From an uncultured Armatimonadia bacterium (GTDB lineage Bacteria > Armatimonadota > Zipacnadia > CAVVLO01), in the NCBI GenBank assembly GCA_963749155.1, contig CAVVLO010000003.1, positions 256,001 through 320,000 on the forward strand: 64,000 nucleotides of DNA. The letters are read 5' to 3'. Positions 14,201 to 62,835 of the stretch are shown here, piece after piece. The translations under genes and the position numbers were made by a program. Numbering within the stretch: the stretch's first letter is position 1; the number at the start of each line of letters is the position of its first letter. Below the pieces are notes generated by a model. That model ran no database searches, was not told the origin of the DNA, and saw nothing but the letters and a program-made list of their open reading frames with translations.

Positions 14201-14665
14201 GCGAACAGTCAGGGGCAATCTTCTCGCCCAGGTGGCAATGCGGGCGATCCCGGCGAGTGGCATCAGATAACTGTGCCGCTCGGTTCCTTAACCGGCAAGA
14301 CCATCTCGGTCATAATGTTCGCGTATGATTCTCGCACCGCTGGCAAGCCTTTCTCGGCCCTGATTGATGACATAAGTCTGACTTCGGATGTCGCTACTTC
14401 TCCCTGGAAGGTAGAAACCGACCCGGCTGAGGGCCAACTCGAAGTCGGTATGCCTCTGAGGCTTGCCAGTACCGCTCCGGGCATCCGTTACACACTGGAT
14501 GGGTCCAATCCAACCGGTGACTCGCCCCTTTACACTGGGCCTATTGTGCCGACCAAGCCAGGCCTGCTGGAAGTCCGTTTCACCACTATAAAAGAAGACG
14601 GTGTGCCAGGTTCGCTCATCTTCAGCAGGCTGTTCGATGTGCTGCCCCAGGGAGGCGCCGAATGA
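11290..14665 (+). CDS. Secreted double right-handed beta-helix protein (pectate lyase 3 / GH55-GH87-like) with C-terminal CBM-like and CHB_HEX_C-like domains; about 3 frameshifts
   Basis: Two GGGxx(F/Y)xPxGxY motifs (LQAAIDQVATEGGGVIFLPAGIY; AFQRALDEAGAAGGGTVYVPPGYW); C-terminal IRYTLDGSNPTGDSPLYTGPI. Confidence 0.75.
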
Positions 14666-15735
14666 GAAGACTGGCCCCCAGTGATTTACCCTCTCGCCCG
14701 CAGTTGCCGGAGGTTCTGGAGTTTCTCGATGGGCGCAACGTGATAACTCAGGCCGACTGGGCAGAGCGCCGAGAGGAATTGAAATCACTGATTCTGACTT
14801 ACGAATACGGCAGTATGCCTCCGGCCAGGCCTGTAGAGCTGGATGCCACCCTGTCAGAGGGGCCAGCCGAGGGGGCTGAAGGCTTCACGCGCGCGCTGGA
14901 GCTTCGGTTTGGCGGTCAGCTTTGGGCCAAGGTTGACCTGAGCCTGCCCGCTTATGCGCCCTGGCCCGCGCCTGTCATTGTGCGTATTGGGCCAGGCTGC
15001 CCTGACCTTGAGGCTACCCTCGACCGCGGCTATGCCTTCTGCGCGCTGCATAATCAGGATCTCGAGCCCGACAAGACCGGCGAGCAATACGAGGGGCCAG
15101 CCCAGGAGGCCTTCCCCGGCTATGAATGGGGCTGTCTTGCGGCCTGGGCCTGGGGCGCGAGTCGCGTCCTCGACTGGCTGGAAAGCGTGCCGGAGATAGA
15201 TGCCACCAAAGCTATCATCACTGGCCATTCTCGCACCGGTAAGGCGGCGCTGCTGGCAGGGGCGCTCGATGAGCGTTTCGCTCTCGTCGTGCCCAATGGT
15301 TCGGGCTGCGGCGGAGCAGCGACTTATCGTATTTATGGCAAGGGCTGTGAGACGCTGGAGGCTATCACTCGCCCTGACCGCTTCAAGGCCTGGTTCAAGG
15401 AGGACTTCGGCGAGTTCGCCGGCCACGAAGACCGCCTTCCCTTCGACCAGCACTCTCTGCGCGCGCTGGTTGCGCCGCGCCCTGTGCTTGCGACCGAGGC
15501 GCTTGACGATGCCTGGGCTAATCTCCTCGGTACTCAAGCCGCCTGGGAAGCCGCTCAGCCTGTCTTCGACTGGCTGGGCGCCCCGCAGGCCAACGCGGTC
15601 CATTACCGGGAAGGCACTCACAACCAGCTTGCTGAGGATTTCGCCTGCCTGCTGGATTTCGCAGATTGGCATCTCAAGGGCGCCCCCTGGCCCGAGCGCT
15701 TGAACAACGCTCCCTTCCCCTCGCCGCTTGGCTAG
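14662..15735 (+). CDS. CE15 glucuronoyl esterase-like protein
   Basis: AAWAWGASRVLD, GHSRTGK nucleophile motif, SGCGGAA, LPFDQH, ALVAPRP. Confidence 0.88.
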   Translation: MRRLAPSDLPSRPQLPEVLEFLDGRNVITQADWAERREELKSLILTYEYGSMPPARPVELDATLSEGPAEGAEGFTRALELRFGGQLWAKVDLSLPAYAPWPAPVIVRIGPGCPDLEATLDRGYAFCALHNQDLEPDKTGEQYEGPAQEAFPGYEWGCLAAWAWGASRVLDWLESVPEIDATKAIITGHSRTGKAALLAGALDERFALVVPNGSGCGGAATYRIYGKGCETLEAITRPDRFKAWFKEDFGEFAGHEDRLPFDQHSLRALVAPRPVLATEALDDAWANLLGTQAAWEAAQPVFDWLGAPQANAVHYREGTHNQLAEDFACLLDFADWHLKGAPWPERLNNAPFPSPLG

Positions 15736-15756: not shown

Positions 15757-18235
15757 ATGGAGAAGCTAGTTGTCCTGCTTCTGCTTGCGATGGCGGCAAT
15801 GGTCAGCGCGCAGACCAACTTCCTCATCGCCGGCGATTTCGAGGGGACCGAGGCGCGCGAGGCCTGGGGTGGCGCTGAGCTTGTTCAGTTAGTTGGGCCG
15901 ACGGGCCAGCAGACCACCGGGCTGCGTTCCCAGACCGCCACCATCACCTGGGCAATGGCAGGTCAGAGCTTGCGCCTGCCCGCTGGGGCGGTCACCTTGC
16001 GGCTTGCGGGCTGGGCCAGGGGCGAGGCGCTTACTCCCTCTGAGGCTGAGCCCTACTATCGCGCGCAGCTCCAGGTGGGCTTCTTTGGCGGAGGCGGCGA
16101 GCAACTCGGCAACTGGGAAAGCGCCAATCTGCCGAGTGGCGATTCTGACTGGACTTTCTATGAGGGCCAGTGGCCAGTGCCCGAGGGCGCCTGGCGCGCG
16201 CAGATATATCTGGGCAACAACCACGTCACCGGGACTTCCTGGTTCGATAACGTAGTGGTGGAAGTGCTTGACGAGAGCGGCGCGGCGCTCCAGCCTGTCA
16301 CCGAGCAGCACACCGATGTCACTGGGTGGTATCCACTGGCTTCGCCAGATGTCTCGCCTGACGCTGGCAGCCCGCTTGACCTGTCGTGGCTTAATGAGAA
16401 GCCCGCTGGTTCGCACGGCTTCATCACTGCGCAAGGGCGATGAGTTCGTTTTCGAGGACGGCACCCCAGTGAAGTTCTGGGGCACCAACTGCGTCGCGGG
16501 CGCGGCCTTTCCCGACCACGCACTGGCCGAGCAAGTCGCTGGGATGATCGCCCGCAGCGGTTTCAATCTGGTGCGTTTTCATCATATGGACGCCGACTGG
16601 GCTGCGCCCAATATCTTCGACATCGCCGGCAGCACCTACGACAAGCCGACGCGCCAGCTTTCCGCCGAGAGCCTCGACAGGCTGGACTACTTCATCGCGC
16701 AGCTCAAGCAGCACGGCGTCTACGTGATGCTGGACCTGCTGGTGCATCGTCGGTTCAACCAGGAAGATCTGCGCGGGCAGCCTGACCCCGACCGGGGCGC
16801 GAAAGAGGCTGCGATGTTCGACCCGGTGCTGTGGGACCTGCAGTGTGAATATGCCACCCAGCTTCTCACTCACGAGAACCCCTATACGGGCAACCGGTAC
16901 GTGGATGAGCCTGCCCTGGTGCTGTCCGAGTGCATCAACGAGAGCAGCCTCTTCTATCCCTGGGGCCTCAGCTCGATGAAGCAGGACCGGCCCTACTACT
17001 ATGACGAGCTGGTCGGCCTGCTCGAAGGCTGGTGTCAGGAGCAGAACCAGCCTCTGCCAGAGGGTGACCTGGCCGACCTCTTGCAAAGTGGCAATACTGT
17101 CGTCCTGGAGTTCCTCTACGAGACACAAACGGCCTACTTCCAGCGGCTGCGAGAGTTCTTGAGAGGGCTAGGCTACCGCGTGCCAATCACTGGCAGCAAC
17201 CACTGGGAGCGTCACGTCGGTGATCTACGCTCCAACGCCATGCTGGACTGGATTGACACCCACAATTACTGGGACCACCCCCAGGGCGGCTATTCGCCGA
17301 CCAACAACTTCGGCAATTCCAGCACGCTAAAGGGAAGAGGGACCAATCTGGCCTCTTACCTGGCGATTATGCAGGTGGTCGACAAGCCACTTACCATCAG
17401 CGAGTGGAACTGTGTCTGGCCCAACGAATACATCATCGAAGGGCCACTGTTGATGGCCGCAACCGGGGCAATCCAGGGCTGGGATGGCCCGATGCAGTTC
17501 TCCTGGGGCGGCTACAGCGCATCACTCGACCATATGGATGGGTGCTTTGAGAACTGGAACAAATCGCACTTTATGGCCGCAGGCTGGGCAGCCGCACTGC
17601 TGTTCCGTCGCGGCGATGTCAAACCCGCCGATTGGGGCTGGGTAGAGCCGCTCTCAGCCGATCCAGCTGCCTATTTCAAAACGCCACTTGCTGCTCTTCC
17701 CGAGGGAGAATACCTGCGCTCTGCGGTCGGCAACTCACTGGATGGTCAGGAATTGTCGAAATCTGGCGAAGCAAACGGCGAGGTAAAGCATGATCCTGAC
17801 CAGGGCGTGCTGGTGCTGGATACCGCAAGCTCCCAAGGCGCAGTCGGCTTCCTCGCGGACAAACTCACCGAGACAAGCCTGCTGGCTATCGAGGTCGAAG
17901 AGACGCCCTTCTGTCAGGTCTTCCTGTCCAGCCTCGACAGCAAGCCACTGGCTGAATCGCAACGGATGGCACTTACAGCGGTCGCGCGCGCCGAAAACAC
18001 AAATCAGGTCTGGAAGCCCTTCCGCAATGGGCTGAAGGACCTCGGCACCGGGCCAGTGCTGATGGAACCCGTGCGCGCGACAGTGACGCTCAAGGGCGCA
18101 AGGTCACTCACCGTGACCGCCCTCGACCAGCATGGCAACCCGACCGGACGCACCATCCCAGTGGATGTCACCACCCTCGGCGCGACCTTCCAGCTCGGGG
18201 AAGGCCAGGCCTTCTGGTATCTGCTGGAACGCTAA
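15757..18235 (+). CDS. Secreted GH5-like (clan GH-A) hydrolase with N-terminal carbohydrate-binding beta-sandwich; frameshift near 16430
   Basis: Signal peptide, PAGSHGFI, VKFWGTN, GFNLVRFHH, LDRLDYFIAQLKQHGVY, HENPYTG, INE, ISEWN. Confidence 0.8.
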
Positions 18236-18391: not shown

Positions 18392-18452
18392 AAAATAGCA
18401 TATCCACCTTGAGGTACAGCAGTCTGGACTTGTGTCAGGGAGGAGTACCCGG

Positions 18453-21400
18453 ATGGAAAGGTTCTGTTTACTACTTGTATTGCTGGCACTGGGCGCCCTG
18501 GTGGCGCGCGGAGGGGCTGAGCCTGCCCTGCAGCGGCTATTCCCCCCCAGCCTTCCCACTGCGACCTGGACAGAATTCTCCTCTCCTGGCTACAAAGCCC
18601 CCGTGACAGGACTAATCTACCGCGCCAGGGAGCTGCGCCCTGTCTGCGGGGTTCCCCTTGGCGCGCTGGCCACCGGCTGCCTGGACATCGAGGCAAGCGG
18701 TGCGCTCGGTTATAGCTCGATTTTTAACGACCAGTCGCCAAGAGGCGGCCCGGTGAATATGCCTTTCCTGGGGCTCTCTGTTGGCGACCGTACCTGGGTA
18801 CTCTGCACCGGTCAGATCAAACACTATGATGCTGGCAACATCCCCCCGCTGCCAGATCCGCGCGTGGTGGTCATCGGCGAGGGTGAGGGTCGTCTGCTTG
18901 CCAGGTACGATACCCACTGGCAGAATCTGGGCGAGGCGCTGGCCGTCGATGAAGACCAGTTCCCGGTCGTATTCCGCACTTCAGTCGATCAGTTGATCTT
19001 CAAGGCCGGCGACTTCGGCGGCCACACGCCCGCCCTTTCTCCGGCAAGTACCTATTCCGACTATTCGTGGGTCAAGTGGACTGCGCCAGTCGCTGCTACC
19101 GTGCGGCTGAGGGGAGGCGCCTGGTCCAACTTCGATGGGCGCACCTGTGACTTCGCCCTCCGTCATAACGGCCGCGATCTGTTCGGTGGATTTGCAGACG
19201 GCGTCCTGGGCAGGCTGACGCTTGGCGCGGATTTTACCTCGGAGAATCCCCTCACTTTCGACCTTCCAGAAGTTGAGGTGGCCCAAGGCGATGAACTGCT
19301 GTTTGCCTTTCGCACCAACGGCACCAGTCAGCATCCCGATATGGGCACCTTCTTTGGCCTAAGGGCGGAGGTGCTGGGCCCGGACCGGATCGGAGAAGAT
19401 CCTGTATTCGGCAGGTTGCCGTCAGCGGACTGGGTGCTCGCCAGGGATTTCCGACCCCAGATCAATCCCGATGGCGCCTGGTCGTATGGCAGCACCCAGG
19501 TCACCAGCGTCCCCCCGCCCGCGGACCTGAACTTCGATGGCTGTCAGCAGGCAACCGAAATCGAATACTGGGGCCACTATCCGGTGCTTGACCTGGAGTT
19601 CAAGACCAGTGCGCCTGTCGAAGTCGGCGCCCGCCTCTGGTCGCCTCTACTGCCCGGCGACACGCCCACCTCCAACACTCCGGGGGCCTTGTTCGAGGTC
19701 CACCTGAGGAACGTCTCCAACGAGCCGCAGCAGGGACGGCTGCTATTCAGCTTCCCGGGCTTCCGAGAGCACCAGTCCAAAAATCGCGCCACGGGCTTTC
19801 CAAATCTGGCCGCTGTGCCTTCGCTGCCCCCTTCACAGCTCCAGAGAACTACTCTCGACGAACCGGGGCTTACAGGGGTGACCGTTAGCGATCCTGGTTG
19901 GAAGGTCGCCTACTCCCTGGGCGCTATTAATGAGCCCTCAACCGAGTCCGGAGCATGCCTGCTGGCCGAGGGCGAGCGCTGGGCTGAGGCAGCGACAGGG
20001 CTGCGCGCGCCCCTCTTCTCTGAGGATGGCACCGCGCTTGCCGTTCCCTACGAACTGCCGGCCGGCGCCGAACGTGTGGTGCGTTTCGTCCTGGCCTGGT
20101 ACGCGCCCGACTGGAACGGCAACGGCACACCCGGCACTGGCGGGGAGAGCTATACCCATATGTACGCCTCGCGTTACACGGGGGCAGCTGATGTCGCGCG
20201 CTTCCTGGCCGCTAACCACGAGACCTTGCTGGCTCGGATATTAAACTGGCAGCAGGTGCTGTACAGCGCGCCTGAACTACCTGGTTGGCTCGCTGACTCG
20301 CTTATAAACAACCTCTATCTGCTGCCCGAGACCAGCACGTGGGCGCAAGCAAAGCCGCCGATTGGTGACTGGTGTCGCCTGGAGGATGGCATCTACGCCC
20401 ATAACGAGTCTCCGCGAAGCTGTCCGCAGACTCCGTGCCTGCCTTGCGATGCCATCAGCGGAATGGTGCCGATGGTCTACTTCTACCCCGAGACCGTCCG
20501 CGCGCTCGCTCGCACGTGGAAGGCCTACCAGTTGCCAAGTGGCCAGATGAAATTTAACTTCGGGCTATATTGGGATTTGACCCACCCGATGGCCGAGGGC
20601 AACCAGGAGGTAATGAACGGCGCTAATTATCTGGTCATCCTGGACCGGTATTACCTGCTAACCCAGGATGAGGACTTCCTGAGAGAGTTTTATGACTCGG
20701 CCAAGCGCGCCTGTCAGTTTTCTTTTAGCCAGCGACCTGCGTACGGGCTTGATCAGATTGTGGCGATGCCAGCGCCGGTTGAGGGCTCCTATAACTACCG
20801 CGAGTGGTTCGAAGATCGGGAGTGGAAGGGCTACGTCGTCCATCCAGGTGGCTACCGGATGGCCCAGGCTCAGATGATGAAACGCTGGGCGCTGGCGGTA
20901 GGTGATGTAGACTATGTCACAGAGCTTGACCAGTTGCTCGAAGCGGGCGCGAGGGCGCTGGAGGAGCAGCTCTGGAATGGCCGCTTCTATGCCGCTTCAT
21001 CTGAGCCCGAGACAGGCTTCAAACAGGATTTCTGGTTTAGCATCCAGCTCAATGGGCAACTCTATGCCCGCTCGGCAGGGCTGCCAGGCGTCTTCCCGCC
21101 GGAGCGCATCCAGAGCGTACTCGACTGTGTGCCCAAGGTCGCCTCGATCAGCAAACTTGGCATACCCCCTACCCTTGCCAATGCCGACTTCACGCCCTTC
21201 CTGCGGGAGAAATATGATAACACCGTCATCGGCGCCGGGTATCTCTCGGGCGCCTACAACTATACCACCCATCTGGAATACCAACTCGCGCAGACCTGTA
21301 TGTATGAAGGGCGTAAAGAGCTGGGACTCGACCTGTTGAAACGCACGCTGGAGGTCTCGGCCTGCACCTGGGGCAACACCTGGGAGGCCTGGAACGCTTG

Positions 21401-21563
21401 CAGTGTCAAAGCCGACGACGGCAGCAGGGGGTATGGGATGGATTACTTCCACAACCTGTGCCTGTGGAACACGCCTGCGGCACTTATGGGGCAAGACCTG
21501 GCAGGGCCAGCGCGGCCTGGTGGGCTTATCCAGCGACTGCTGCAGGCGGCCAAAGCCCCCTGA
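18453..21563 (+). CDS. Secreted GH116-like (non-lysosomal glucosylceramidase family) glycosidase with an inserted, permuted beta-sandwich
   Basis: CGVPLGALATG, YWGHYP, WSPLLPGD..SNTPG, RFVLAWYAP, LPGWLADSLINNL, LWNGRFY. AGGAG RBS before ATG 18453. Confidence 0.8.
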   Translation: MERFCLLLVLLALGALVARGGAEPALQRLFPPSLPTATWTEFSSPGYKAPVTGLIYRARELRPVCGVPLGALATGCLDIEASGALGYSSIFNDQSPRGGPVNMPFLGLSVGDRTWVLCTGQIKHYDAGNIPPLPDPRVVVIGEGEGRLLARYDTHWQNLGEALAVDEDQFPVVFRTSVDQLIFKAGDFGGHTPALSPASTYSDYSWVKWTAPVAATVRLRGGAWSNFDGRTCDFALRHNGRDLFGGFADGVLGRLTLGADFTSENPLTFDLPEVEVAQGDELLFAFRTNGTSQHPDMGTFFGLRAEVLGPDRIGEDPVFGRLPSADWVLARDFRPQINPDGAWSYGSTQVTSVPPPADLNFDGCQQATEIEYWGHYPVLDLEFKTSAPVEVGARLWSPLLPGDTPTSNTPGALFEVHLRNVSNEPQQGRLLFSFPGFREHQSKNRATGFPNLAAVPSLPPSQLQRTTLDEPGLTGVTVSDPGWKVAYSLGAINEPSTESGACLLAEGERWAEAATGLRAPLFSEDGTALAVPYELPAGAERVVRFVLAWYAPDWNGNGTPGTGGESYTHMYASRYTGAADVARFLAANHETLLARILNWQQVLYSAPELPGWLADSLINNLYLLPETSTWAQAKPPIGDWCRLEDGIYAHNESPRSCPQTPCLPCDAISGMVPMVYFYPETVRALARTWKAYQLPSGQMKFNFGLYWDLTHPMAEGNQEVMNGANYLVILDRYYLLTQDEDFLREFYDSAKRACQFSFSQRPAYGLDQIVAMPAPVEGSYNYREWFEDREWKGYVVHPGGYRMAQAQMMKRWALAVGDVDYVTELDQLLEAGARALEEQLWNGRFYAASSEPETGFKQDFWFSIQLNGQLYARSAGLPGVFPPERIQSVLDCVPKVASISKLGIPPTLANADFTPFLREKYDNTVIGAGYLSGAYNYTTHLEYQLAQTCMYEGRKELGLDLLKRTLEVSACTWGNTWEAWNACSVKADDGSRGYGMDYFHNLCLWNTPAALMGQDLAGPARPGGLIQRLLQAAKAP

Positions 21564-21646: not shown

Positions 21647-23278
21647 TTACTCGAATTCGAACCAGTAGAGCTTCGCCTGGTTCAGCTTGACCTTCAGCAC
21701 GACCGCTTCGCCTTCGCCTGCGCCGAGGTCCTCCCCGCCCGCCCACTTGACCGGGGCGTTGTGCAGATCGCCAATCAACGGAGTGCAGTCACCGAAGTCT
21801 CTGCCCCCAAAAGGCGCGCGCCCGATATTGCAGGCGGCAATCTGGAGGCTTCCCCCGCGCTTCGTCACTGCGTTGATCTTGAGTTTCTTGCCGGGTGGGA
21901 TGAAGGCCACGGTCGAGAATTCGCCAAGCTGCTCGGCTTCGAGCCCCACGAGCCGGCCCTTAGGCCAGATGGCCATCCCGATATCGTAGGCCCAGGCGCC
22001 GCGTGGATACTTGTGGGGGAAGGCATATCCAGTATAGGGCAGTGCGAAATCGCCACTGGGCAGTTCGACCAGGTTGGGAGCGGCGAATACAGTGCCGCCG
22101 TCGAACTCGCCGAATTCGCCGGTCTCGAAGAGAGTGCCGTTCGGCAGCCAGTCCCAGTAGCGGCTGTCGGTGCTGCTCGCAAGCACGATGCGGGTGGAGT
22201 CCGAAGCCATATCCCACACCGCCGGGAACATCAGCCTGGCCTCGGGCGCGCCTGGATAAGTGCCGTAGCAGTTGGTGTAGAGCACTTCGCTGGGCAGCAT
22301 ATCGGGGGGGGAGTGCAAGACAATCTCCGACAGCGGAAACTGGTCGAAAGTGGCGGCTTCGCTACGCCCAATGGAGCGCCTGCCCACCATATACCAGGGC
22401 TGACCTTGCCCCTCGGCATAGCCCGGGGCGCGCTCGGACAGCCACCAGTTGCGCGTCCAAAGCACATATTTGCCAAGCAGCGCATCCCAGCAACCGATGT
22501 TCTGCGTGTCGGCGTGTTCGACCGCCAACGGTTCGGGGACGTCGGTCCAGTGATAACCATCTGGCGAATAGGCGCCGAACAACGCAAAGGCTACTCCCAC
22601 ATCAGCCCGCCAGGCGCGCGGTTCGCACCGGTCGGGATATTTCGCGCACAGCTCATCATAGCGCTCTTTGGTCAGGTCACGTGTCCCAACTGCCTTATAA
22701 CGTTGCTCTGGAGGGGCTGTAGGGTCTAGAAAGATGGCCCCCGGCAGCCCGAGCAGGACATTATTCTCGGTCTCGCCGCCCCAATCCACCAGCTTGAGAT
22801 TGGGCCTTTCCCACACCAGGCCGTCTGTGGACTCGAAATAGACCTCATGGCCAGCGCCCTGGTCATCCTGGCAGCCTGCCCAAAGCCGATATTTGTCGCC
22901 GTCCTTAAGCAGAGTGCCAGCGCTGAGGCCCATCGCGACCAGCGGCCTGTCGCGCTCTATTATCGGGCCGCGCTTCTCGGCGCGTTCGACCACGAACTTG
23001 ATGCCGCGCGGCATATCTTCGGTGACAAACCGCGCATCCCATGGGCCAGCTTTTACGGCGCGACTGGTGGCTATCCCGTTGCCCTGGGCATCCAGCCAGT
23101 TGTGAGCGCCTGGCCTGACGTAGAGCCAGTCCACGAAAGTCATACGAGCACCGGGCAGCACGTATGGCTCACCGGTCGTGGCGCCAGGCAGCGCGCCTCC
23201 CCCTACGATATTGGTTGGCATCTGCGCGCAGCACAACGTTGCGATCAAAAGCACCAGCAACACAAGTACCGGTAACAT
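21647..23278 (-). CDS. Secreted putative five-bladed beta-propeller glycosidase (GH32/43/130-like clan), paralog 1
   Basis: Signal peptide after GGAGG RBS; Asp-box-like YFESTDGLVW and YSPDGYHW; C-terminal LKINA beta-sandwich. Confidence 0.65.
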   Translation of the reverse strand: MLPVLVLLVLLIATLCCAQMPTNIVGGGALPGATTGEPYVLPGARMTFVDWLYVRPGAHNWLDAQGNGIATSRAVKAGPWDARFVTEDMPRGIKFVVERAEKRGPIIERDRPLVAMGLSAGTLLKDGDKYRLWAGCQDDQGAGHEVYFESTDGLVWERPNLKLVDWGGETENNVLLGLPGAIFLDPTAPPEQRYKAVGTRDLTKERYDELCAKYPDRCEPRAWRADVGVAFALFGAYSPDGYHWTDVPEPLAVEHADTQNIGCWDALLGKYVLWTRNWWLSERAPGYAEGQGQPWYMVGRRSIGRSEAATFDQFPLSEIVLHSPPDMLPSEVLYTNCYGTYPGAPEARLMFPAVWDMASDSTRIVLASSTDSRYWDWLPNGTLFETGEFGEFDGGTVFAAPNLVELPSGDFALPYTGYAFPHKYPRGAWAYDIGMAIWPKGRLVGLEAEQLGEFSTVAFIPPGKKLKINAVTKRGGSLQIAACNIGRAPFGGRDFGDCTPLIGDLHNAPVKWAGGEDLGAGEGEAVVLKVKLNQAKLYWFEFE

Positions 23279-23404
23279 ATGAGACCTCCCAAGAACAAAC
23301 ACCGCAGGGGATAGCATCCCCTGCACCCGCACTAGTTGGCTTCGATGTGAACTCTTCCGGATATATCGGGTTCCTGACCGAAGGTCAGGCCTCTGCTCCC
23401 GATA
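23274..23404 (-). repeat. About 130-nt structured leader, near-identical to 25046-25178 (family B hairpin + family A hairpin + RBS)
   Basis: Identical run aacatatgagacctcccaagaac...gtgaactcttc and tcgggttcctgaccgaaggtcaggcctctgctcccga in both copies. Confidence 0.85.
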
Positions 23405-23407
23405 CTC

Positions 23408-25050
23408 CTACTCGAACTCGAACCAGTACAGCTTCGCCTGATTCAGTTTCACCTTCAAGATTAGCGCTTCGCCCTCGGCAAGGCCCAGGTCTTCTCCACC
23501 GGTCCACTTAACGGAAGCGTTGTTCGAGATCGCCAATCAGGGGCGCGCAGTCATCGAAGCCGCGCCCAGGCAGAGGCTGCCGACCGATATTGCAGGCCGC
23601 AATCTGGATACTTCCCCCTCGCTTCGTCACTGCGTTGATTTTCAACTTCTTGCCTGGCGGGACGAAACCTACAGTCGTGAACTCTCCAAGCTGCTCTGCT
23701 TCGAGGCCCATCATCCGCCCCTTGGGCCAGAGGGCATAAGCAGTATCGAGCTGCAGCAAGCCGCGCGGATACTTGTGAGGAAGGCTCCACGCCGCGTAGG
23801 GCAGCGCCAGATCGCCGTTGGGCAATTCCACCAGGTTAGGCTGGGGGAAGATGCACCCGCCATCGAACTCGCCGAAGGCGCCGGTATCGAGCACCGTGCC
23901 GCCCGGCAGCCAGTCCCATACCCGGCCGTCACTGCTGCCTGCGATCTCGATGCGCGTGGTGTCGGAGTCCATATTCCAGATGGCAGGGAACATCAACCGA
24001 GCCTCAGGCGCTTTCGGGAAGACCGTATAGCAGTTGGTGTAGAGCACTTCACTCGGCAGCATATCGGGGGGAGAGTGCAAGACGAGCTCTGACAGCGGAA
24101 ATTGCTCGAAATTGGCGCTCTCGGTGCGCCCTATAGACCGCCTGCCTACCACCCACCAGGGTTCTCCCTGCCCCTCCGGATAGCCTGGCGCGCGCTGGGC
24201 AAGCCACCAGTTGCGCGTGTAGAGGACATATTTACCGAGCAGCGCATCATAGCAGCCAGTATTGCTGAGCGTATCGGCATGCTCGATGTTGAGCGGCTCT
24301 GGTAGCTCCGTCCAGTGCAGTCCATCAGGAGACGTGGCGCCAAATAGTCCGAAGACGACCCCAACATCGGAGCGCCACGCGAGCGGATCCCAGCGGTCAG
24401 GATATTTCGCCGAGAAGGCATCATAATCAGCCTTGGACATACCCTCAAGGCTGACCGACTTGAATCTGGCTCTCGGCAGGCGCGCCGGCATCGAGAAAGA
24501 CCATCGCCTCCGGGCCTGGCAAGCCCTCGATAAAGTTGTTTTCTTTCGAACCCTCTACCTCGACCAGCCCGAGGCTCGGGCGATTCCAGTACAAGCCGTC
24601 CAGCGATTCGAAATAGCAATAACGCTGCTTGCCGTCTTCAGCCTGAGCCAGCGCCCAAAACTTATAAGTATCGCCGTCCTGAAGCAGCGCCACGGGCCTC
24701 AGTTGCATTGCCTCATAAGGGGCCTGTCGCTGGATAATCGGGCCACTCTTGACGGCCTGCTCCAGGCAGAACTTGATGCCGCGTGGCATATCCTGCGTCG
24801 CGAAGTTGGCGCCCAAGGGGCCAGCTTTCAGATCTTTCTTCGCAGTTATGGTGCCTTGCTCGTTGTACCAGTTCAGTGCCCCAGGCCTGATATAGAGCCA
24901 ATCCACGAAGACCATCCGCTGGCCTGGCAGCACGTACGGCTCTCCTTTTGTCTGACCGGGCAGCGCCCCGCCGCCTGGCAAGTTAGACGGGAGCTGGGCA
25001 CAGGCCAGCGTTGCAATTAAAAGTACCACCAGCACCAGAACAGGCAACAT
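23408..25050 (-). CDS. Secreted putative beta-propeller glycosidase, paralog 2 (tandem duplicate of 21647-23278); frameshifts near 24480 and 23520
   Basis: Shares MLPVLVL.VLLIATL, EPYVLPG, VLHSPPDMLPSEVLYTNCY and the C-terminal LNQAKLYWFEFE*. Confidence 0.75.
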
Positions 25051-25178: not shown

Positions 25179-25278
25179 TGCTTGCATCGCAGGGCTGAGT
25201 ATTCCCTCGCTCTACTTCCCTTTCCTGCCAGCGGAAGTGCTGATGATGCGTCGAAATCTTCGTCAGGGAGGGATTCTG

Positions 25279-27696
25279 ATGCCACTTGTATTCTGTCTGC
25301 TCTGTTTGCTTCTGGTCACTGGACTTGCCAACGCCGCCCTGGCGCCACTCAATGCTGCCGAGGAAGCTGCGCTGGCACGGCCTGCTTTCTCGATCACCGA
25401 TCCTCCCGGCTACGTCAGCGACGAGGAAGAAAAGCAGCAGCAACGAGAAGCCTGGCAAAAGCTGGAAGGCGATCTTAAAACCGCAATCGCATCAGGTCAG
25501 CACGACTTCACTGTCCCCCCTGGCGAGTACCGTTTCCCCAGTGCGACGGGCTTTGTGCTGGCGGATGTCTCCGATTTCACACTTCACGCGACAGGCGCCT
25601 ATTTCTGGTCAGAGCGTCCTGAGGCTGACCTGCTGGGCAATCCACAGGGGCTCAACCTCCTCCGCTGCCACAACGTGACAATCGAAGGGCTTACGCTCGA
25701 TTTCGACCCGGCACTCTGGGTGCAGGGTCAGATCACCTCCCTCGACCTTGCCGCCAACACAGTGGATATCGCGCCGGATCCGGACTTCCCTTCACCGGCC
25801 GGCTTTGGCGGAGGGCAGCTCTTCTTCTTCCGTCCGGATGGGCGCTTGCTTAGGCAAGGAGTGCCCTTCCACGAGGGGCTTGAGGCCCTGCCCGACGCAG
25901 GATTGCGCGTACACGTGCGCCCAGGTCAGCTTCAGTGGATGAACGAAGACAAGGGCGTGCAGGCTGCTTTCGGAGGCGCCTCCACCGTCCAGGTTGGCGA
26001 CTGGGTTGTCGCGCCCTTCCGACGGGGTCATGCCATCCGGATGGAACTGTGCGAGAGCTGCTCGCTTGTGGGCTGCACCGTATATGCCTCACCGGGCGCG
26101 GGCATCGTCGAACTAGGCGGCGCTGGCGGCAACCGTTATGTGGGACATAAACTGATCCGCAAGCCCGGCGCCAGGCGCCTGTGGGCGTCTACTGCGGACG
26201 CCTTCTTTTCGGCGCTGGTCGATCGCGGTCCCACACTCGAGGGTTGCGAGTTCAGCTTCACTGCCGATGATCTGTTCAATCTGCACGGTTATTTCGCCCT
26301 GGTAACCCACAGGCTGGCACCCAACCAGATCATCGTGATGCCTATGAATTACGAGCCTTTCGCCCCCGGTGGCAAGCTGACTTTCTACGACTGGCGCTCT
26401 TGCGAGCAGCTTGGCGAGGCGACAATCACTGCTGTGGAAAAGGTCACAGACGAGGCGGTCATCGATGAGGCCAGGGCCTTCCCCGGTCAGGTTGGACTAC
26501 TGAGCTATTCCGGCGCGCCCTTTTTGCTGACTCTCGATAACCCAGTAGAACTTGCCCCAGGCGCAATCGTAGACACTCACAACGCCAACGACGCGGGGTT
26601 TGTCATACAGGATTGCTACTTCCACGATTCGACCGCGCGCTGCGGCCTAATCAGTGGCGCCTCCAACGGCCTTATCGAGCACAATGTCTGGCGCGACCTG
26701 GGTGGTGGGCTGTCCCTCTATATGGAGTCCTGGTTCTATAATGAAGGCCCGATGCCCCATGATGTCACCGTGCGCGGCAACCGCTTCCTGGATATCCTGC
26801 TGGACCCGCGTAGCGCAGATGCCCCAGTAGCAGGATTGCTCTATACGGGGATGGTGCCACCTGGCAACTACCTGCGAACCGTTGCCCCGCTGACCAACCT
26901 TGTGTTCGAGGACAACCTCATAGACCCCTCGCCCGGCCCGGCGCTCGTGATGGCCTATGTGAAGGGCGGCGCGGTGAGGAACAACACCTTCCGCAGGCCT
27001 TTCAGCTTCATCGGGAAGGCTGGCGGCGAGGTCAGTCCCGAATACTACGGCAAGTCGCTGGATATGCCCCTCTACTTTACCGTATGCGAGGATATAGAGG
27101 TCTCCGGCAACGTCGTGGAGGACCCCGAGGGCTTCTGCGAGTCCGGCGCTGTCGGCCTCGGGCCCCTCTGCAAGGCCATCATTCTGGACGGCGACGCGCG
27201 ACAAAGCAGCGATTCGGACTATGTCGCCGAGGCGCTGACGGGATTTTCCAACCTGCAGGGCGCTCGAGGCTGGAGTTATGGCTACTGGATCGAACAGGGA
27301 GAGTACTCGACCGAAGGTTTCTGCCCGATGGACGAGTTCGGGGGCATCTGGTGGCGCGTTGCTGGCCAGGCTTTTCCCTTCATACGGGCAGTCTCAATAC
27401 ATCCAGGTGACTGGGACGGCCAACCTGTTGCGGCCATCCGGCGTTGGACAAGCAGCGTTGATGGCTCGGTAGAGGTCTTTGGAGAGCTACACGGCTCTGG
27501 CGCAGGCAATGGGACGCTCGCGCGTATCTTCGTGGACGGGAAAGAAGCTTTCCGAGTCGATTTGACCGACGGAGAACCTCACGGATATTCCACACACCTG
27601 CAGGAGCTTAGAGAAGGCTCTCTGGTAGATTTCGTCCTTACTTCGAAGGGCGACCTGAACAGCGACGCCACCCGGTGGACCATCGAGCTAAGGTGA
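25279..27696 (+). CDS. Secreted right-handed beta-helix protein (GH110-like) with C-terminal WSYG/WT(S/A) beta-sandwich
   Basis: TVPPGEYRF, CHNVTIEGLTLDFDP, STADAF, GPTLEGCEFSFTADDLFNLHG; C-terminal FSNLQGARGWSYGY...IHPG...RRWTS...DFVL...NSDAT. Confidence 0.7.
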   Translation: MPLVFCLLCLLLVTGLANAALAPLNAAEEAALARPAFSITDPPGYVSDEEEKQQQREAWQKLEGDLKTAIASGQHDFTVPPGEYRFPSATGFVLADVSDFTLHATGAYFWSERPEADLLGNPQGLNLLRCHNVTIEGLTLDFDPALWVQGQITSLDLAANTVDIAPDPDFPSPAGFGGGQLFFFRPDGRLLRQGVPFHEGLEALPDAGLRVHVRPGQLQWMNEDKGVQAAFGGASTVQVGDWVVAPFRRGHAIRMELCESCSLVGCTVYASPGAGIVELGGAGGNRYVGHKLIRKPGARRLWASTADAFFSALVDRGPTLEGCEFSFTADDLFNLHGYFALVTHRLAPNQIIVMPMNYEPFAPGGKLTFYDWRSCEQLGEATITAVEKVTDEAVIDEARAFPGQVGLLSYSGAPFLLTLDNPVELAPGAIVDTHNANDAGFVIQDCYFHDSTARCGLISGASNGLIEHNVWRDLGGGLSLYMESWFYNEGPMPHDVTVRGNRFLDILLDPRSADAPVAGLLYTGMVPPGNYLRTVAPLTNLVFEDNLIDPSPGPALVMAYVKGGAVRNNTFRRPFSFIGKAGGEVSPEYYGKSLDMPLYFTVCEDIEVSGNVVEDPEGFCESGAVGLGPLCKAIILDGDARQSSDSDYVAEALTGFSNLQGARGWSYGYWIEQGEYSTEGFCPMDEFGGIWWRVAGQAFPFIRAVSIHPGDWDGQPVAAIRRWTSSVDGSVEVFGELHGSGAGNGTLARIFVDGKEAFRVDLTDGEPHGYSTHLQELREGSLVDFVLTSKGDLNSDATRWTIELR

Positions 27697-28591: not shown

Positions 28592-29392
28592 CTAAGCTTT
28601 GCGTGCCCAGCCAAGTCCCTCAAGCCAGTCACCCGACAGGCCGCTCCAGGTCGCGATATGCGCATCACCAGGCACGAGGCCCAGCCCATGCGCGCCGTGG
28701 GGATAGACATGCAGCTCGAAGGTCCCGCCCGCCTGCCGGATTGCCGTGGCGAACCTCAGCGAGTTTTCCACCGGCACCGCCTGGTCGTCCGAGGTGCTCC
28801 ACATAAAGGTCGGAGCGGTCTCCGGCGTCACGTGGAGGTCGAGCTGCGTCAGCCAGCGTCCAGCCGCGGTCGGCTCAGGCCCCAGCAGATTTGTAATCGA
28901 GCCTTGATGCCCGCCCGGCCCCCCGCCGATGACCGCATAACACAGGAGGAGCGCGTTCGGCTCGTTGGTGAAAGCGCCAAGCGGCCCCTCGTCCGCGCAG
29001 AAGTGCATATCCCAGTGGACCCCCAGGCTGGCAGCTAGATGGCCTCCGGCGGAGAATCCAAGCACCGCGAGCTTGTCCGGCGCGACTTTCCACTCACTGG
29101 CCCTGCTGCGCACCAGCCGAAAAGCCCGCGAGACGTCCCGGAGGGGCTGGGGATGCAGGCGCGGATTCACGCTGTAATGGCACACGAAGGCATGATAGCC
29201 CAGCTCGTTGTAGCGACGCGCAATCGGCTCTGCCTCGTGGTCAGCTCGCCCCGCATAACCTCCTCCGGGGCAAACGATGACCGCTCCGAGGGGCTCGGTT
29301 GTGTCCAGCAGATAGGTCTCAAGCCAGGGCGCGAAGCCATCGCCGACGGTGTCAGTCCACTCCGCATCAGTCCAAAGCGCAAGCTTCTCCAT
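28592..29392 (-). CDS. Alpha/beta hydrolase (acetyl/feruloyl esterase-like, BD-FAE type)
   Basis: VIVCPGGGY, GFSAGGHLA, DQAVPVENS, HVYPHGAHGLG. Confidence 0.9.
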   Translation of the reverse strand: MEKLALWTDAEWTDTVGDGFAPWLETYLLDTTEPLGAVIVCPGGGYAGRADHEAEPIARRYNELGYHAFVCHYSVNPRLHPQPLRDVSRAFRLVRSRASEWKVAPDKLAVLGFSAGGHLAASLGVHWDMHFCADEGPLGAFTNEPNALLLCYAVIGGGPGGHQGSITNLLGPEPTAAGRWLTQLDLHVTPETAPTFMWSTSDDQAVPVENSLRFATAIRQAGGTFELHVYPHGAHGLGLVPGDAHIATWSGLSGDWLEGLGWARKA

Positions 29393-35147: not shown

Positions 35148-36635
35148 GTGCAATCGAGTGTAGCTGACACAACCAGAGCAGAGCCAGGTGCACTTCCTTT
35201 GCGCTGGTTCGCTTTTATTGCCTGGCTTCTCTGCGTGAGCGTTTTAGCCTGGCGCCATGAGCCTTGGGCCGATGAAGCCCAGGCCTGGCTGATTGCCAAA
35301 GATAGTTCGGTCCTGAATCTCTTCCTCAACCAGCTACGCTACGAAAGCACCCCTGGCCTGTGGCATCTGCTGCTTATGCCTTTCGCCAAGCTGGGAGCGC
35401 CTTATTGGACGATGGCAGCGCTGTCAATCGCCTCGGTTGCCTTTGGGGTATGGCTACTGCTCTTCAAGACCAGGCTTCCCCTCCCCCTGGCAATGATATT
35501 GCCCTTCACTTTCTGGTTCTTCTATTACTATCCAGTTGTGGCGCGCAATTACTGTTTGCTGCTTCCACTTGGCTTGCTCATCGCTCTGGCGTATCCCAGT
35601 CGTTTCACCCATCCCTGGCGCTGGTTCCTCGTCCTGGCGCTCTTCGCCAATGTCTCCTTCCATGCGCTGCTTATTGCCACCGGGATTGTGCTGGGAGAGC
35701 TCCTGGTTACGCTTCCCTCTGAAGCACCAGGGGTAGCCAGTTATAAGCGCGCGCGCCTGACACTCGCGTTCTGTTGGCTGGTGCTGCTGATTGGGGTTGG
35801 GTATGCGCTGAAGCCTGCGTCCGATTACGTAATGCTTGCGCAGGCTGGAATCCGACCGCTCAAGGCGCTTGATGCTCTGCTTGGAGCCTTTGCTTACGAC
35901 AGTCTCGATGGTCCCTGGGCGCCCATCTCTATTTTTACCGGTTTTCTGTCGCTCTTTACTCTGGCGGGCTTGTTACGATTTTTCGCCAAAAGAGGGGTGC
36001 TCAGGTTTGCCCTCTTCAGCACGCTGCCGGTGTTGCTCTATTTTTGCATCTATCCCTTGAAATTCTGGCATAGTGGCATCCTTGTCTGTTGGCTTGTTGC
36101 GCTGGCGGTAAGGGCAGCCCACAACGCTCCTGCCTGTGCCAGGCCAAAAATGAGCTTCGTCACCAGGGGCCTTGTGGCGCTGTGTCTGACTTTCCAATTA
36201 GGGTGGGCGCTTGCATCCAGCGCTTACGACCTGAACAATTCCTACTGGCCCTCCAAGGACGGTCTCCAACATATTGAGGCCCATCTGCAGGCAGGCGAGA
36301 CCCTGGATTCGGTGGGCTGGTCGGTTATCTCGGTGCTGCCTTTCCTCGAAGAGAACCCCTTCCTCGCAATGAAGGAAAGCCAGTCTTATGATTACTGGCG
36401 CTGGTCCAGAGCTAATCCGCTGCTGAACTACACTCTGGAGCAGGCTGCCCAGCGCGGCGCCGATTGTATTATGTTTCAACTGGAATACGATCGCCTGCAT
36501 CCAGCCAATAATGTCCTGCCCAAAGCTCCGGCGGGCTATCAACTGACTGAGGTGGTCTCAGGCTTTATGATGTTCAAGCATAAACTCATTGGCGGCGCCT
36601 GGTACGCTTTCTACTGCAAAGTAGACCCTCGCTAG
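35148..36635 (+). CDS. Polytopic membrane GT-C-fold glycosyltransferase-like protein
   Basis: HEPWADEAQAWLIA acidic first loop, YESTPGLW, YYYPVVARNY; about 11 hydrophobic segments. Confidence 0.7.
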   Translation: MQSSVADTTRAEPGALPLRWFAFIAWLLCVSVLAWRHEPWADEAQAWLIAKDSSVLNLFLNQLRYESTPGLWHLLLMPFAKLGAPYWTMAALSIASVAFGVWLLLFKTRLPLPLAMILPFTFWFFYYYPVVARNYCLLLPLGLLIALAYPSRFTHPWRWFLVLALFANVSFHALLIATGIVLGELLVTLPSEAPGVASYKRARLTLAFCWLVLLIGVGYALKPASDYVMLAQAGIRPLKALDALLGAFAYDSLDGPWAPISIFTGFLSLFTLAGLLRFFAKRGVLRFALFSTLPVLLYFCIYPLKFWHSGILVCWLVALAVRAAHNAPACARPKMSFVTRGLVALCLTFQLGWALASSAYDLNNSYWPSKDGLQHIEAHLQAGETLDSVGWSVISVLPFLEENPFLAMKESQSYDYWRWSRANPLLNYTLEQAAQRGADCIMFQLEYDRLHPANNVLPKAPAGYQLTEVVSGFMMFKHKLIGGAWYAFYCKVDPR

Positions 36636-60421: not shown

Positions 60422-62835
60422 CCGAGTGGCACCACCGTTATCGTGCGGGCAGGCAGCCTCAATATCTGCTTCATCCGCGCAGGACGCGGTGTCCCCTCTG
60501 GGAAGTCGCTTTCGCGATATTCGATGGGGTATTCCAGGTTCTCCGCAGCGGTATTGAAGTACAACAGATAGCCCTCGAAGCGCGAAACCAGCACTCGGTC
60601 GACGCCTGCATCCAGCACTGGGGCATTCCACTCCGGATGGCCAACTTGCGCGCCGGCCTCTTCGCTAAGGGTCTTCACAAGCTCTGCCCTTTGGCGCTCG
60701 GAGAGGGTTGTCGCATCCAGCGTAAGCACCAGCCCCTCGCCCAGCTTGACCGCGCCTTGCTGCCAGAGTGGCGCGGTGTCCCAGTAGAGGTTCACCTTCG
60801 GGAAAGGCGCCAGTTCAGCCTCGGTCGCGTCCAATTCGCGCACGTTAATCTTGCCCACATACACGGTCAGCTCGCGGCCATCGGGGCTGCCCTCCTGTCG
60901 CTGGGAAGGAATCCACGCTGGCCCTTCCAGTCGCAAGGTATGGAAAGCGATTTCCTCACTGGGCGGAGTTGTGATAGTCCATTCCCAGGCAGCCTGCGTG
61001 TTCGGTACAGCTTCGACAGTCTGCCCTTCAAGTGTCATCCGCTGAGGTAAAGCCCATTCTGGTACCCAGCCTGTAAGAGTGATGCGGTAGGTCTTCCCTC
61101 CCGCCAGAGGCAGACTGATGCCCGCCCCGGGGGCCGCCCAGCGCGCGCCAGGCTCGGGGTTGTGCCACAGCCCGGTCAGCGCCGCCTCGTCGGTGTTCGG
61201 GTCGACGGTATAAGCTGCGGGCAAATCTCCGGTCAGCTCAACCTGCAAGCCAGAGGCCGCAATCGGTGGAGTCTCAGGCGCCTGGGCCTCCCATAAAGCA
61301 GTCTCGCCCTCGAGGGTCTGGGCGGGCCGGGCTTGCAGCACAACAAGCACTCCCCCCGCTTTGACCCATTCCTGCACGGCAAGCCAGGCGGCCTCATCCA
61401 GGAAATCCGCCCCCGCAAGCACCAGAGTCCGGAGTTCCCAGTTTGGTCAGCGCGCCATCCAGGAGGAGCCGGTCGTCTACCACTTCATAGACCAGGCAAT
61501 CGCGCAGCGGATCGGAAAGCGCCAGCGTCGCGCCGCTCCAGGGCTGGTCGGGATGCAGCCAGTGTTCCAGCGTCGGATGCCAGAGGGCCACCGGCGTAAT
61601 CGCAGCCTTCCCCGTAAAAAGCTCGCGATAGGTTTCGAAGTAATCGCGCGCGCGGTCCATATTCCCAAGATAGTCGAACCAGGTCTCGACCCCGTTAACG
61701 AGGTCCATATGAAGCCTGTTGAGCTGCCTGTCGCGAGGCACGTCGGAGGGCGGTTCAGTATAGTAAGGCACGCCGTAGAACTTGCAGGCGGTGCTGACTC
61801 GGCGGGTCGGGAAATAGCCGACATCGCCAGGCGTCTGCGCCGAGATGCCAAGCTTTGCCATCTCAGCGACGTGACGCCCCTCGTCATTGCCCGCCTTTAG
61901 CGGCTCCTGCGCATAGCCCAGACTGGCGACAATCTCCTTGCCCGGGAAATGGCGCTGCACGATGGTGGTCGTCTTGCGCAGCGTCTCGCTCCAGGCCTGG
62001 TTATACCAATCGGCGAAATCCACCCAATAGCGCCTGGCTTCGACCGAATCGTAGAGCTTCGGCTGGACGGTCAGCGGCTCGGGAGGCACTAGTTCCTCTG
62101 CCTGGGCAAAGCTCGTGCCCCAGGCGGTGTTGAGCGCCGCCAGGCTGCCATATTTGGCAAGCTGTTTCGCACGGAAATCCGCCAGCGCGTAGTCATCGCC
62201 GCACCAGTAGCCAGGTTTGGCGGTAGGTTGGGGCCGCAGCCAATGGGTCATCCCGAAGCAATACCCCAACTCGCCATATTCCGAGGGCATCGCAAGCCGG
62301 ATAAAACTGATCTGCCCCTCGAGCGCCGTGCTGAGCCGAGAGTAATACCGGTCGTAGACTCCTTCCAGATCAGGCGACCAGAGCGAAAGCTGGGGGATCG
62401 TTTCGCCGGTCTCGAGGTTCTTGTACGGCACAAAGACCGGCGATTCGGCATACCAGTTGGGCGGGAAATGCAGCCAGCAGAAGGGCACATAGCCCAGCCC
62501 GTTGTCGATTATCTTGCGCGCGCCGTTCTGGTAGAGATGCCCAGCGCCATTGACCTTCTTCAGGCTCTGCGTAGACCCAGCACTGATACTCGCACCAGTC
62601 GTCCTGGCCATTGCGAAGTATCTGATCAAGCTGCCCCTGGCCCACCTCGCACCAGTCAGGCGGAGTCATGAGAGATGCCCTTCCAGTAGTCGATGAAGGT
62701 CTGCACGCCCGTCTGGCCCGAGTAGAAGCGTATAGGCATATCGCCAAGCGGCGGGAAAGGCGTTTCCTGTGCGCAACCCACTAACGCGATGCCCAGCAGT
62801 AAACCCGCGATCATCAAACCTGTCATCGTCCTCAT
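60418..62835 (-). CDS. Lipoprotein, GH42/GH14-like TIM-barrel glycosidase with trimerisation-like domain; several frameshifts
   Basis: Lipobox LVGC; FPPNW, LSLWSP, SEYGE, YWCGDDYALADFR...KYGSLAALNTAWGT, WVKAGGVLV. Pieces: 62656-62862, 62370-62747, 61394-62629, 60418-61422. Confidence 0.7.

Follow-up and report, generated by a model that had tools for sequence, protein, structure and literature searches.

A predicted jelly-roll module with swapped segment order in the N-terminal sandwich of a divergent GH116-like enzyme

How does a glycosidase come to carry, within its N-terminal domain, a second domain whose conserved motifs stand in the opposite order in another protein encoded on the same stretch of DNA? 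The question is raised by a 64 000 nt stretch of contig CAVVLO010000003.1 from an uncultured Armatimonadia bacterium (assembly GCA_963749155.1), the whole of which is referred to here as the window, and in which a gene at 18453–21563 specifies a GH116-like glycoside hydrolase. A preliminary description of this DNA had proposed that a permuted beta-sandwich domain was inserted into the enzyme between short direct repeats, and that the C-terminal domain of a second protein was its unpermuted relative. The reading that we favour, to which we would give about four chances in five, is that of a secreted, divergent GH116-family glycosidase in which a surface loop of ∼35 amino acids (aa) has been replaced by a ∼225-aa circularly permuted jelly-roll module of a widespread, unnamed family.

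Insertion into the N-terminal sandwich loop

The protein, P0001, is numbered here from GTG 18432, the first of the 1043 codons of an open reading frame (ORF) at 18432–21563, although ATG 18453 is its likely start. The parts of the gene that concern the insertion are as follows (all coordinates are those of the window).

18453–21563, plus strand: GH116-like glycoside hydrolase gene (start ATG 18453, 1036 aa; database copy P0003)
18534–18839, plus strand: first part of the GH116 N-terminal beta-sandwich (aa ∼35–136), upstream of the insert, from alignment A1
18843–19518, plus strand: inserted domain (aa ∼138–362), in place of the ∼35-aa loop of insert-free homologues, from homologue alignment
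19548–20225, plus strand: remainder of the GH116 N-terminal domain (aa 373–598; Pfam profile 75–311)
20640–21404, plus strand: GH116 catalytic (alpha/alpha)6 region (Pfam DUF608, aa 737–991)

Both GH116 domains were recognized by Pfam, with Glyco_hydr_116N (PF12215) matching at 7e-20 and 72.3 bits (cut-off 30.2) and DUF608 (PF04685) at 7.2e-14 and 52.2 bits (cut-off 26.3). The Glyco_hydr_116N profile is split near position 75 in P0001, whilst in the homologue P0127 it is contiguous (1–311). Searches with P0001 returned 142 homologues at E ≤ 0.001; among the 120 listed, most are 760–850 aa long with a coverage of ∼65 %, and a few cover 97–99 %. In an alignment of 20 sequences (A1) the RLFP...LGLSVG..TWVL block was kept throughout (20/20), and the insert was present in nine (P0001, P0004–P0007, P0047, P0060, P0071 and P0090), where it occupies a loop of the sandwich just ahead of a conserved YWGHYP strand. 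Overall identity to P0001 in this alignment is 50–63 % for P0004–P0007 and 38–40 % for P0047, P0060, P0071 and P0090. Measured from TWVL to YWGHYP, the intervening segment comprises 254 aa in P0001, 243–247 aa in its clade-mates and 207–209 aa in a second clade of carriers (clade B, below), as against 35–55 aa in insert-free relatives; the latter have a uniform 35–36 aa among the neighbours of clade B, and P0008, P0009, P0011, P0078 and P0084 (35–46 aa) are among the short-loop homologues.

A module of ∼225 aa thus sits in the GH116 N-terminal sandwich loop. Domain insertion had been proposed with a splice at the two repeats, and this part of the preliminary description is well founded: the indel boundaries defined by homologues differ by no more than a few residues from the proposed splice, which leaves a loop of 31 aa, and the indel does not lie away from the repeats.

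Swapped segment order and the family of the insert

The motif order that had been described for the insert, HTP...KWTAP...VAQGDELLF...DFRPQINPDGAWSYG, was found as such in ORF 18432–21563. Scans of Pfam and NCBIfam assigned no family to the insert, nor to the C-terminal domain of the second protein, P0002. When the 230-aa insert was compared by phmmer with 1.84 billion representatives, 26 proteins matched at E ≤ 1e-3, comprising GH116 enzymes with the insert, small secreted proteins of 211–266 aa, one of which (P0149) has a Pfam PEP-CTERM match, and large multi-repeat proteins, in which the domain is paired with Ig, CarboxypepD_reg, BACON, FG-GAP, galactose-oxidase or autotransporter domains. 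The domain is also found in tandem arrays, for example in P0130, P0134, P0137, P0148, P0129 and P0135. A profile of six single-domain proteins retrieved 148 more (116–466 aa), whose precomputed Pfam annotation was PEP-CTERM only, except for three with unrelated domains.

All single-domain proteins have one order, here called canonical, in which W-D-L-A-A-D-[WF]-S..NPNG.W[ST]YG directly follows the signal peptide and RWTAP lies ∼80 residues further on. For the family as a whole, the canonical motifs are a W-x-L-A-x-D-[FW]-S..NP-x-G-x-W-[ST]-Y-G block (hereafter the WSYG block) and then a core with H-[TP]-[PG], R-W-T-[AS]-P, G-G-x-W and G-D-x-[IL]-x-F. Every one of these motifs is present in the insert in swapped order, with significant matches in hmmsearch and hhalign, and its two segments are located as follows.

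18915–19331, plus strand: predicted jelly-roll core of the insert (aa 162–300), corresponding to positions 43–181 of the canonical hidden Markov model (HMM), with GGHTP, VKWTAP (19068–19088), GGAW and GDELLF, from hmmsearch and hhalign
19419–19511, plus strand: relocated first-strand block (aa 330–360, ADWVLARDFRPQINPDGAWSYG), corresponding to canonical HMM positions 5–35, from hmmsearch and hhalign

The canonical HMM was built from four canonical seeds and then 41 full-length instances, and has 198 positions. Its positions 43–181 matched aa 162–300 of P0001 with an independent E-value (i-E) of 5.4e-15 in the genome-plus-hits set and 2.9e-17 in the GH116 set, and its positions 5–35 matched aa 330–360, further towards the C terminus, with i-E values of 8.3e-6 and 4.5e-8 in the same two sets. 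Profile–profile comparison by hhalign likewise aligned residues 33–180 of the native insert with canonical positions 57–195 (probability 99.2, E 1.6e-19) and residues 180–211 with positions 4–35 (probability 96.5, E 9.5e-10). When the C-terminal block was moved to the front in silico, the re-permuted insert gave a single 176-column alignment with canonical positions 8–196 (probability 99.8, E 1.5e-28; score 183 versus 127). The swapped matches and the colinear alignment of the re-permuted form bear out a circular permutation relative to the family, and at the level of profile comparison they show both the swapped segment order and the family membership of the insert. In both GH116 clades the canonical end (position 195/196) directly abuts the canonical start (4/5) with no linker, a junction that resembles one between tandem repeats.

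Predicted structures point the same way. The AlphaFold2 (AF2) model of the insert, made from a 14-row alignment, is all-beta, with a mean predicted local distance difference test score (pLDDT) of 72.8 and a predicted template modelling score (pTM) of 0.75; residues 50–180 reach ∼80–93, whilst residues 1–23, 36–40 and 221–230 are below 50. The corresponding model of the P0002 C-terminal domain (67 rows) has a pLDDT of 80.8 and a pTM of 0.79. With VIA-align against 48 161 chains, YPM 1pm4 and 8pvs stood at the top for the insert and entries of carbohydrate-binding module (CBM) family CBM51 scored Z 6.9–7.2; for the P0002 domain the leading matches were CBM51 2vmi (Z 10.2, root mean square deviation 2.7, 113 aligned), 7jrm (10.1) and CBM36 7ay3 (10.0). 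The all-beta sandwich that had been suggested for the insert is therefore upheld by the AF2 model and VIA-align. Both models matched 2vmi, 7jrm, 2ygl, 2vng, 4itc and 7ay3, and it is in the aligned ranges that they differ. On every chain the alignment of the canonical model runs from the start (2vmi 905–1050, 7jrm 1306–1449, 2ygl 62–228, 2vng 39–204, 4itc 982–1151), and that of the insert core begins 13–19 residues later (2vmi 922–1050, 7jrm 1323–1452, 2ygl 80–232, 2vng 56–208, 4itc 1001–1153). Because its aligned ranges start later than those of the canonical model, the first strand appears to be missing from the N terminus of the insert. The local pattern of elements, a short strand, a turn or helix and then the WSYG strand, is alike in both models, and from these we infer that the relocated WSYG strand would fill the slot of the canonical first strand.

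It could be argued that the insert is no true permutant, and is instead a complete, degenerate domain using its own N-terminal segment (approximately RYDTHWQNLGE) as first strand, with the WSYG block left over as a repeat fragment or linker. W27, in the poorly modelled first ∼50 residues of the insert, is indeed conserved in at least 90 % of sequences, the HMM core alignment extends back to canonical positions 31–44 in clade B, and P0127 has further repeat fragments past its WSYG block. No part of the insert is, however, better conserved than the WSYG block, in which N209, P210, G212 and W214 are invariant in 14/14 rows, and this would not be expected of a linker. Moreover, no N-terminal part of the insert matches canonical positions 5–35; its N-terminal Trp corresponds instead to the second Trp conserved in canonical domains (W77 in A3, W82 in A4). 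The late start of the insert core on the CBM chains was consistent, and the WSYG strand is predicted at a pLDDT of ∼70–75 where the true flanks remain below 50. As such, we consider this alternative unlikely, and a circularly permuted module the better description.

The comparison with the second protein concerns the following features.

25279–27696, plus strand: beta-helix protein P0002 (database copy 805 aa; weak PF13229 match; ORF 25237–27696, start ATG 25279)
27229–27693, plus strand: canonical-order domain of P0002, with the WSYG block FSNLQGARGWSYG (27238–27288) and then the core (27346–27693) with HPG, RRWTS and GSLVDF, from MAFFT and hhalign

The opposite motif order that had been described here, FSNLQGARGWSYG...HPG...RWTS...REGSLVDF, was confirmed in ORF 25237–27696. 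In a MAFFT alignment the C-terminal domain of P0002 is colinear with canonical proteins, and with P0002 included the WSYG block still has invariant S, G, W and Y; the second Trp is also invariant, as are His in HPG, Trp and Thr in RWT and Gly in GD. For the core, hmmsearch gave an i-E of 0.002 with P0002 alone and 3.5e-9 with its homologue P0124, which is 35 % identical and the only relative of this domain in the 450–1434 aa class searched; a profile of P0002 and P0124 matched the family at an hhalign probability of 98.0 (E 2.5e-13). On this profile evidence the domain is a distant member of the family in canonical order. The preliminary description had gone further in calling it the unpermuted homologue of the insert: of this, family membership and canonical order stand, whilst direct homology to the insert is weak, and the proposed profile alignment of the two was likewise weak. 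Homology of the two window domains is transitive, because both match the same family profile and the direct comparison is weak. In the Atlas both domains have the same pair of unnamed clusters as neighbours, one of 181 aa (125 members) and one of 175 aa (85 members), at scores of 0.95–0.96, which is a lead rather than proof.

We infer, and hold it likely, that the module takes the fold of the canonical domain, its relocated strand occupying the original slot, and that it arose from a tandem array in shifted register. By this duplication-and-truncation route, about one repeat length would have been captured from the array in such a register that the canonical C terminus was joined directly to the canonical N terminus, with the core first and the WSYG block last. 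Since the old termini are joined with no linker between them, the canonical termini must be spatially adjacent, from which it follows that the canonical form would also have been insertable; the permutation therefore looks like an accident of history and not a requirement of the structure.

Flanking repeats and the history of the insertion

The repeats that prompted the proposed splice are the following.

18841–18849, plus strand: left copy of TCCCCCCGC (codons I-P-P, aa 137–139), judged to be a chance occurrence
19510–19518, plus strand: right copy of TCCCCCCGC (codons V-P-P-P, aa 360–363), judged to be a chance occurrence

Both the positions of TCCCCCCGC and the extended strings, CAACATCCCCCCGC versus CAGCGTCCCCCCGC, were confirmed in the DNA. 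One might read these repeats as a 9-nt target-site or microhomology duplication that marks a recent insertion, whose excision would restore the ancestral enzyme. The copies are exact, in frame within the P0001 ORF (separation 669 nt, or 223 codons) and a few residues from the indel boundaries defined by homologues; the spliced loop of 31 aa compares with 35 aa in insert-free relatives, and the word is rare, with 33 copies in the 4.17-Mb genome. Within the window it occurs three times versus 1.38 expected, a count of at least three being reached in 18 of 100 shuffles; the third copy, at 61351–61359, is far from the GH116 gene. When two 99-nt windows placed 669 nt apart were slid along all genome ORFs of at least 500 aa, an exact 9-mer was common to both in 496 of 8069 control placements (6.1 %), and three further repeated segments of 9–11 nt lie within the same 1-kb region as the TCCCCCCGC pair. 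Both copies encode Pro-Pro at two linkers (IPP and VPPP), CCC-CCG accounts for 122 of the 2612 Pro-Pro codon pairs in long ORFs (4.7 %), and the right-hand Pro run is not kept in P0005 and P0126. A recent event is also contradicted by the insert itself, which is common to homologues 29–65 % identical to it in two GH116 clades and is too old for such a mark; the insertion predates the divergence of proteins 30–65 % identical, an interval over which no 9-nt scar could have lasted. At chance level, the repeats are a coincidence of Pro-Pro codons in two linkers. As meaningful flanks of the insertion they are thus discarded, and a recent insertion marked by them is extremely improbable.

Apart from TCCCCCCGC, a 23-nt stretch at 19116–19138 (an 11-mer, one base and a second 11-mer, encoding GAWS and NFDG in the core) recurs in split form at 19473–19483 and 19530–19540. 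In the split copy the first 11-mer falls in the WSYG block (GAWS); the second follows after 46 nt and lies in the host loop (NFDG), and the right copy of TCCCCCCGC stands between the two. Split double 11-mers are rare, with 20 independent cases in 1.87 million long-ORF positions, several of ten examples coming from one repeat-rich ORF. NFDG is not conserved at the second site, where homologues have ELAG or PLIG. Micro gene conversion is possibly the cause.

The age and number of the insertion events were approached through 123 GH116-type sequences, namely P0001, P0004–P0122, P0126, P0127 and a paralogue from the same genome (contig C3, 50031–52880). Fifteen carry the domain, 11 of them as a permuted loop insert. 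In P0127 a permuted module instead precedes the uninterrupted GH116 N-domain and is flanked on either side by weak additional repeat fragments (i-E 0.0025 and 0.0081); P0085 and P0086 have the domain N-terminally in canonical order, and P0091 has another arrangement. The swapped order was thereby found in 12 of the 123 sequences. Across homologues, the inserts are 29–65 % identical.

In a FastTree host tree (121 rows; insert columns removed, P0006 and P0065 dropped for length), the loop-insert carriers fall into two separate, well-supported clades. Clade A consists of P0001, P0004, P0007, P0005 and P0126, with the insert-free P0008 plus P0127 as sister, and clade B, comprising the paralogue from the same genome, P0060, P0090, P0047 and P0071, is nested among insert-free sequences with 35-aa loops. 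A single carrier clade was rejected by the approximately unbiased (AU) test of IQ-TREE on a chosen subset of 38 rows (delta lnL 409, p 4e-6), the tested carrier group having been named after the first tree was seen. For the domain core (180 instances, 132 columns), clade A plus P0127 form one clade (99), with the P0127 module nested within the clade A inserts, and clade B forms another (99) that groups with canonical small proteins (95); nevertheless, A, B and P0127 as one clade were not rejected in an AU test with 68 rows (p 0.43). The spacing from WSYG/WTYD to YWGHYP is 28–29 aa in both clades, and this equal right-hand junction favours a shared origin of the junction. By eye, in A1, clade B looks like its insert-free neighbours in the N-terminal flank, and unlike clade A. 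The insertion, as read from its presence in two GH116 clades and in a second paralogue of the same genome, is an old event.

Could the long form be ancestral, with the domain already in the common ancestor of the bacterial GH116 group and precisely deleted many times since? The near-equal junction spacing and the failure of the AU test to reject a single module origin are what this account has in its favour. It would nonetheless demand many independent precise deletions, as only 11 of the 123 sequences are carriers, in two nested clades amid insert-free sequences with a uniform 35-aa loop, and the insert is absent from the solved GH116 enzymes as well as from the Pfam model; we therefore rate this account as very unlikely. 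Insertion into the short loop remains our preferred reading, and we would advance, tentatively and with considerable doubt, the further suggestion that the permuted module entered the same 35-aa loop at least twice, through separate captures or through exchange of the insert alone between paralogues of one genome. The loop would then be a hot spot, and a new CBM family would have been attached in three ways, as a canonical N-terminal domain, a permuted N-terminal domain and a permuted loop insert.

Related sequences were also seen elsewhere in the same genome. The paralogue on contig C3 (50031–52880, minus strand; locus L004) is a 950-aa frame with a permuted loop insert, belongs to clade B and is 74 % identical to P0060. 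On contig C2, an 823-aa frame with a weak GH36 N-domain match (203570–206038, plus strand; loci L005/L006) has the domain right after its signal peptide in permuted order (HMM 73–192, then 6–68); because this frame starts with a permuted domain, the permuted form is not confined to GH116 loops. An 863-aa frame on the same contig (216921–219509, plus strand; L002) has FSDQQGAGGWNYQY...RVWTAP near its N terminus, apparently a partial domain in canonical order; the P0002 C-terminal query found it at E 3.8e-4, and the part scanned had no Pfam match. On contig C6, a 173-aa frame (35599–36117, plus strand) matches only the middle of the HMM (positions 52–145, E 1.4e-8) and may be a truncated member or only a piece of one. 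A search of the genome contigs with P0001 for related loci gave one distant locus (L007, 37 %). With the single insert sequence as the only query, none of 60 same-class genomes besides its own had a match at E ≤ 0.001 (0/60).

A number of results weigh against the reading put forward here, or against parts of it. BLASTP between the insert and the C-terminal domain of P0002 found nothing significant, direct hhalign comparison of the two reached a probability of only 23–46 %, and the profile of the insert was made from an alignment of only 14 rows. In the insert model the WSYG strand (E214–218) has a pLDDT of only ∼70–75 and the first ∼50 residues are poorly modelled. Foldseek of this model against the PDB gave no match at E ≤ 1e-3, with weak CBM6/35, C1q/TNF and capsid jelly rolls only, and its best VIA-align score was a middling Z of 7.3. 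In view of these models, the likeness to CBMs would be a generic jelly-roll likeness; for modules of the CBM51, CBM36 and CBM6 type it is one of predicted fold alone (Z 6.9–10.2), with no ligand or metal residues identified. The evidence for a tandem-array origin consists of the abutting breakpoints and the weak P0127 fragments. Finally, where one or two gains are concerned, the host tree calls for at least two events, whether as separate gains, as transfer of the insert alone from one paralogue to another or as many losses.

Host enzyme, putative role and comparison with known systems

The hydrophobic N terminus of P0001, MERFCLLLVLLALGALVARGG, looks like a signal peptide, and the enzyme is thus predicted to be secreted. 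Single-sequence similarity to solved GH116 members reached only E 1e-9 to 1e-11; against a profile of 20 P0001 homologues, TxGH116 scored E 1.3e-50. Catalytic residues were placed by profile alignment to 7w2s, an 842-residue construct, the numbering offset being fixed with E441, D452, H507, T591 and D593 of TxGH116. As named in PMC10167657, E441 is the nucleophile and D593 the acid/base of that enzyme, and D452, H507 and T591 are sugar ligands. The equivalents of the catalytic pair are as follows.

20406–20408, plus strand: Glu659 (in NESPR), equivalent of the TxGH116 nucleophile E441, from profile alignment
20811–20813, plus strand: Glu794 (in EWFE), equivalent of the TxGH116 acid/base D593, from profile alignment

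E659 is invariant in 20/20 rows of A1. The acid/base position holds Glu, not Asp, across the bacterial GH116-like group and is at least 90 % conserved in A1. The three glucose ligands D452, H507 and T591 face Pro, Leu-type and Trp positions. On the strength of these alignments, P0001 is a divergent GH116-like enzyme that has kept its predicted catalytic pair as Glu/Glu. Its substrate is probably not a simple beta-glucoside, because the sugar-binding residues of TxGH116 are not conserved, and the lost ligands point to another specificity rather than to exclusion from the GH116 fold family. The Glu of 'PQxEC', just past the nucleophile motif, varies in clade A, being Pro in P0001 and Ser in P0005 and P0126.

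The neighbours of the gene include a CE15 glucuronyl esterase (14662–15735; PF22244, 8e-45), a weak GH5-like ORF (16268–18235) and, on the minus strand, a BD-FAE/alpha-beta-hydrolase esterase (28592–29392); several of the ORFs in between (minus-strand 21647–23332 and 23508–24491) were without a match in the Pfam scan. Elsewhere, the domain keeps company with surface-anchored PEP-CTERM proteins, adhesin-like repeat proteins and other glycosidases. Given this company, the CBM-like fold and the neighbourhood of carbohydrate-active enzymes, we think it rather more probable than otherwise, by analogy, that the module binds glycan and would tether or orient the enzyme on a polymeric substrate. Should that be so, the module would stand as a candidate for a new CBM family, and enzyme engineering could make use of the GH116 loop as a site that tolerates insertion.

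Circular permutation and domain insertion are established phenomena, and to our knowledge clear natural cases that combine the two are few. A limited literature search found no account of this domain family or of a GH116 enzyme with an inserted domain. Here the unpermuted domain, tandem arrays and several fusion architectures are all at hand for comparison with the permuted insert, and, if repeated entry is true, the three modes of attachment would together be a natural experiment on the interplay of circular permutation and insertion site. The case also draws attention to an abundant, unnamed jelly-roll family on PEP-CTERM surface proteins and carbohydrate-active enzymes, as well as to a divergent GH116 subgroup whose sugar-binding residues are unlike those of characterized beta-glucosidases.

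Set beside the named members of GH116, namely the beta-glucosidase TxGH116, human GBA2 and the exo-beta-D-arabinofuranosidase 8ic6, P0001 has the same N-terminal beta-sandwich and (alpha/alpha)6 catalytic domain, and it departs from them in the ∼225-aa domain within the sandwich and in having Glu, not Asp, at the acid/base position. With CBM51, CBM36, CBM6/35 and CBM4, the modules described here have in common a predicted jelly-roll fold and attachment to glycosidases; unlike those of the CBM51, CBM36 and CBM6 type, they are matched by no Pfam NPCBM or CBM model, and the strand order is permuted in the insert. Sugar-binding beta-sandwiches are known as insertions in glycosidases, for example PA14 inside GH3 beta-glucosidases. 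Both that case and ours place a lectin-like beta-sandwich in a glycosidase loop, where it is presumed to shape substrate recognition, but the insert of P0001 belongs to another domain family, has a host of another family, occupies a non-catalytic N-terminal site and is circularly permuted.

Natural circular permutations that arose via duplication and truncation include concanavalin A versus favin, the swaposins and DNA methyltransferases. Many more are reported in CIRPIN, a 2026 survey (PMC13552848). Like known permutants, the insert is predicted to retain the same fold with relocated termini, its old termini are joined directly and its new termini lie in a former loop, and tandem arrays of its family exist as plausible precursors. 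Unlike them, the permuted copy is here nested inside another domain, and the same host family also carries unpermuted (P0085 and P0086) and permuted (P0127) N-terminal fusions.

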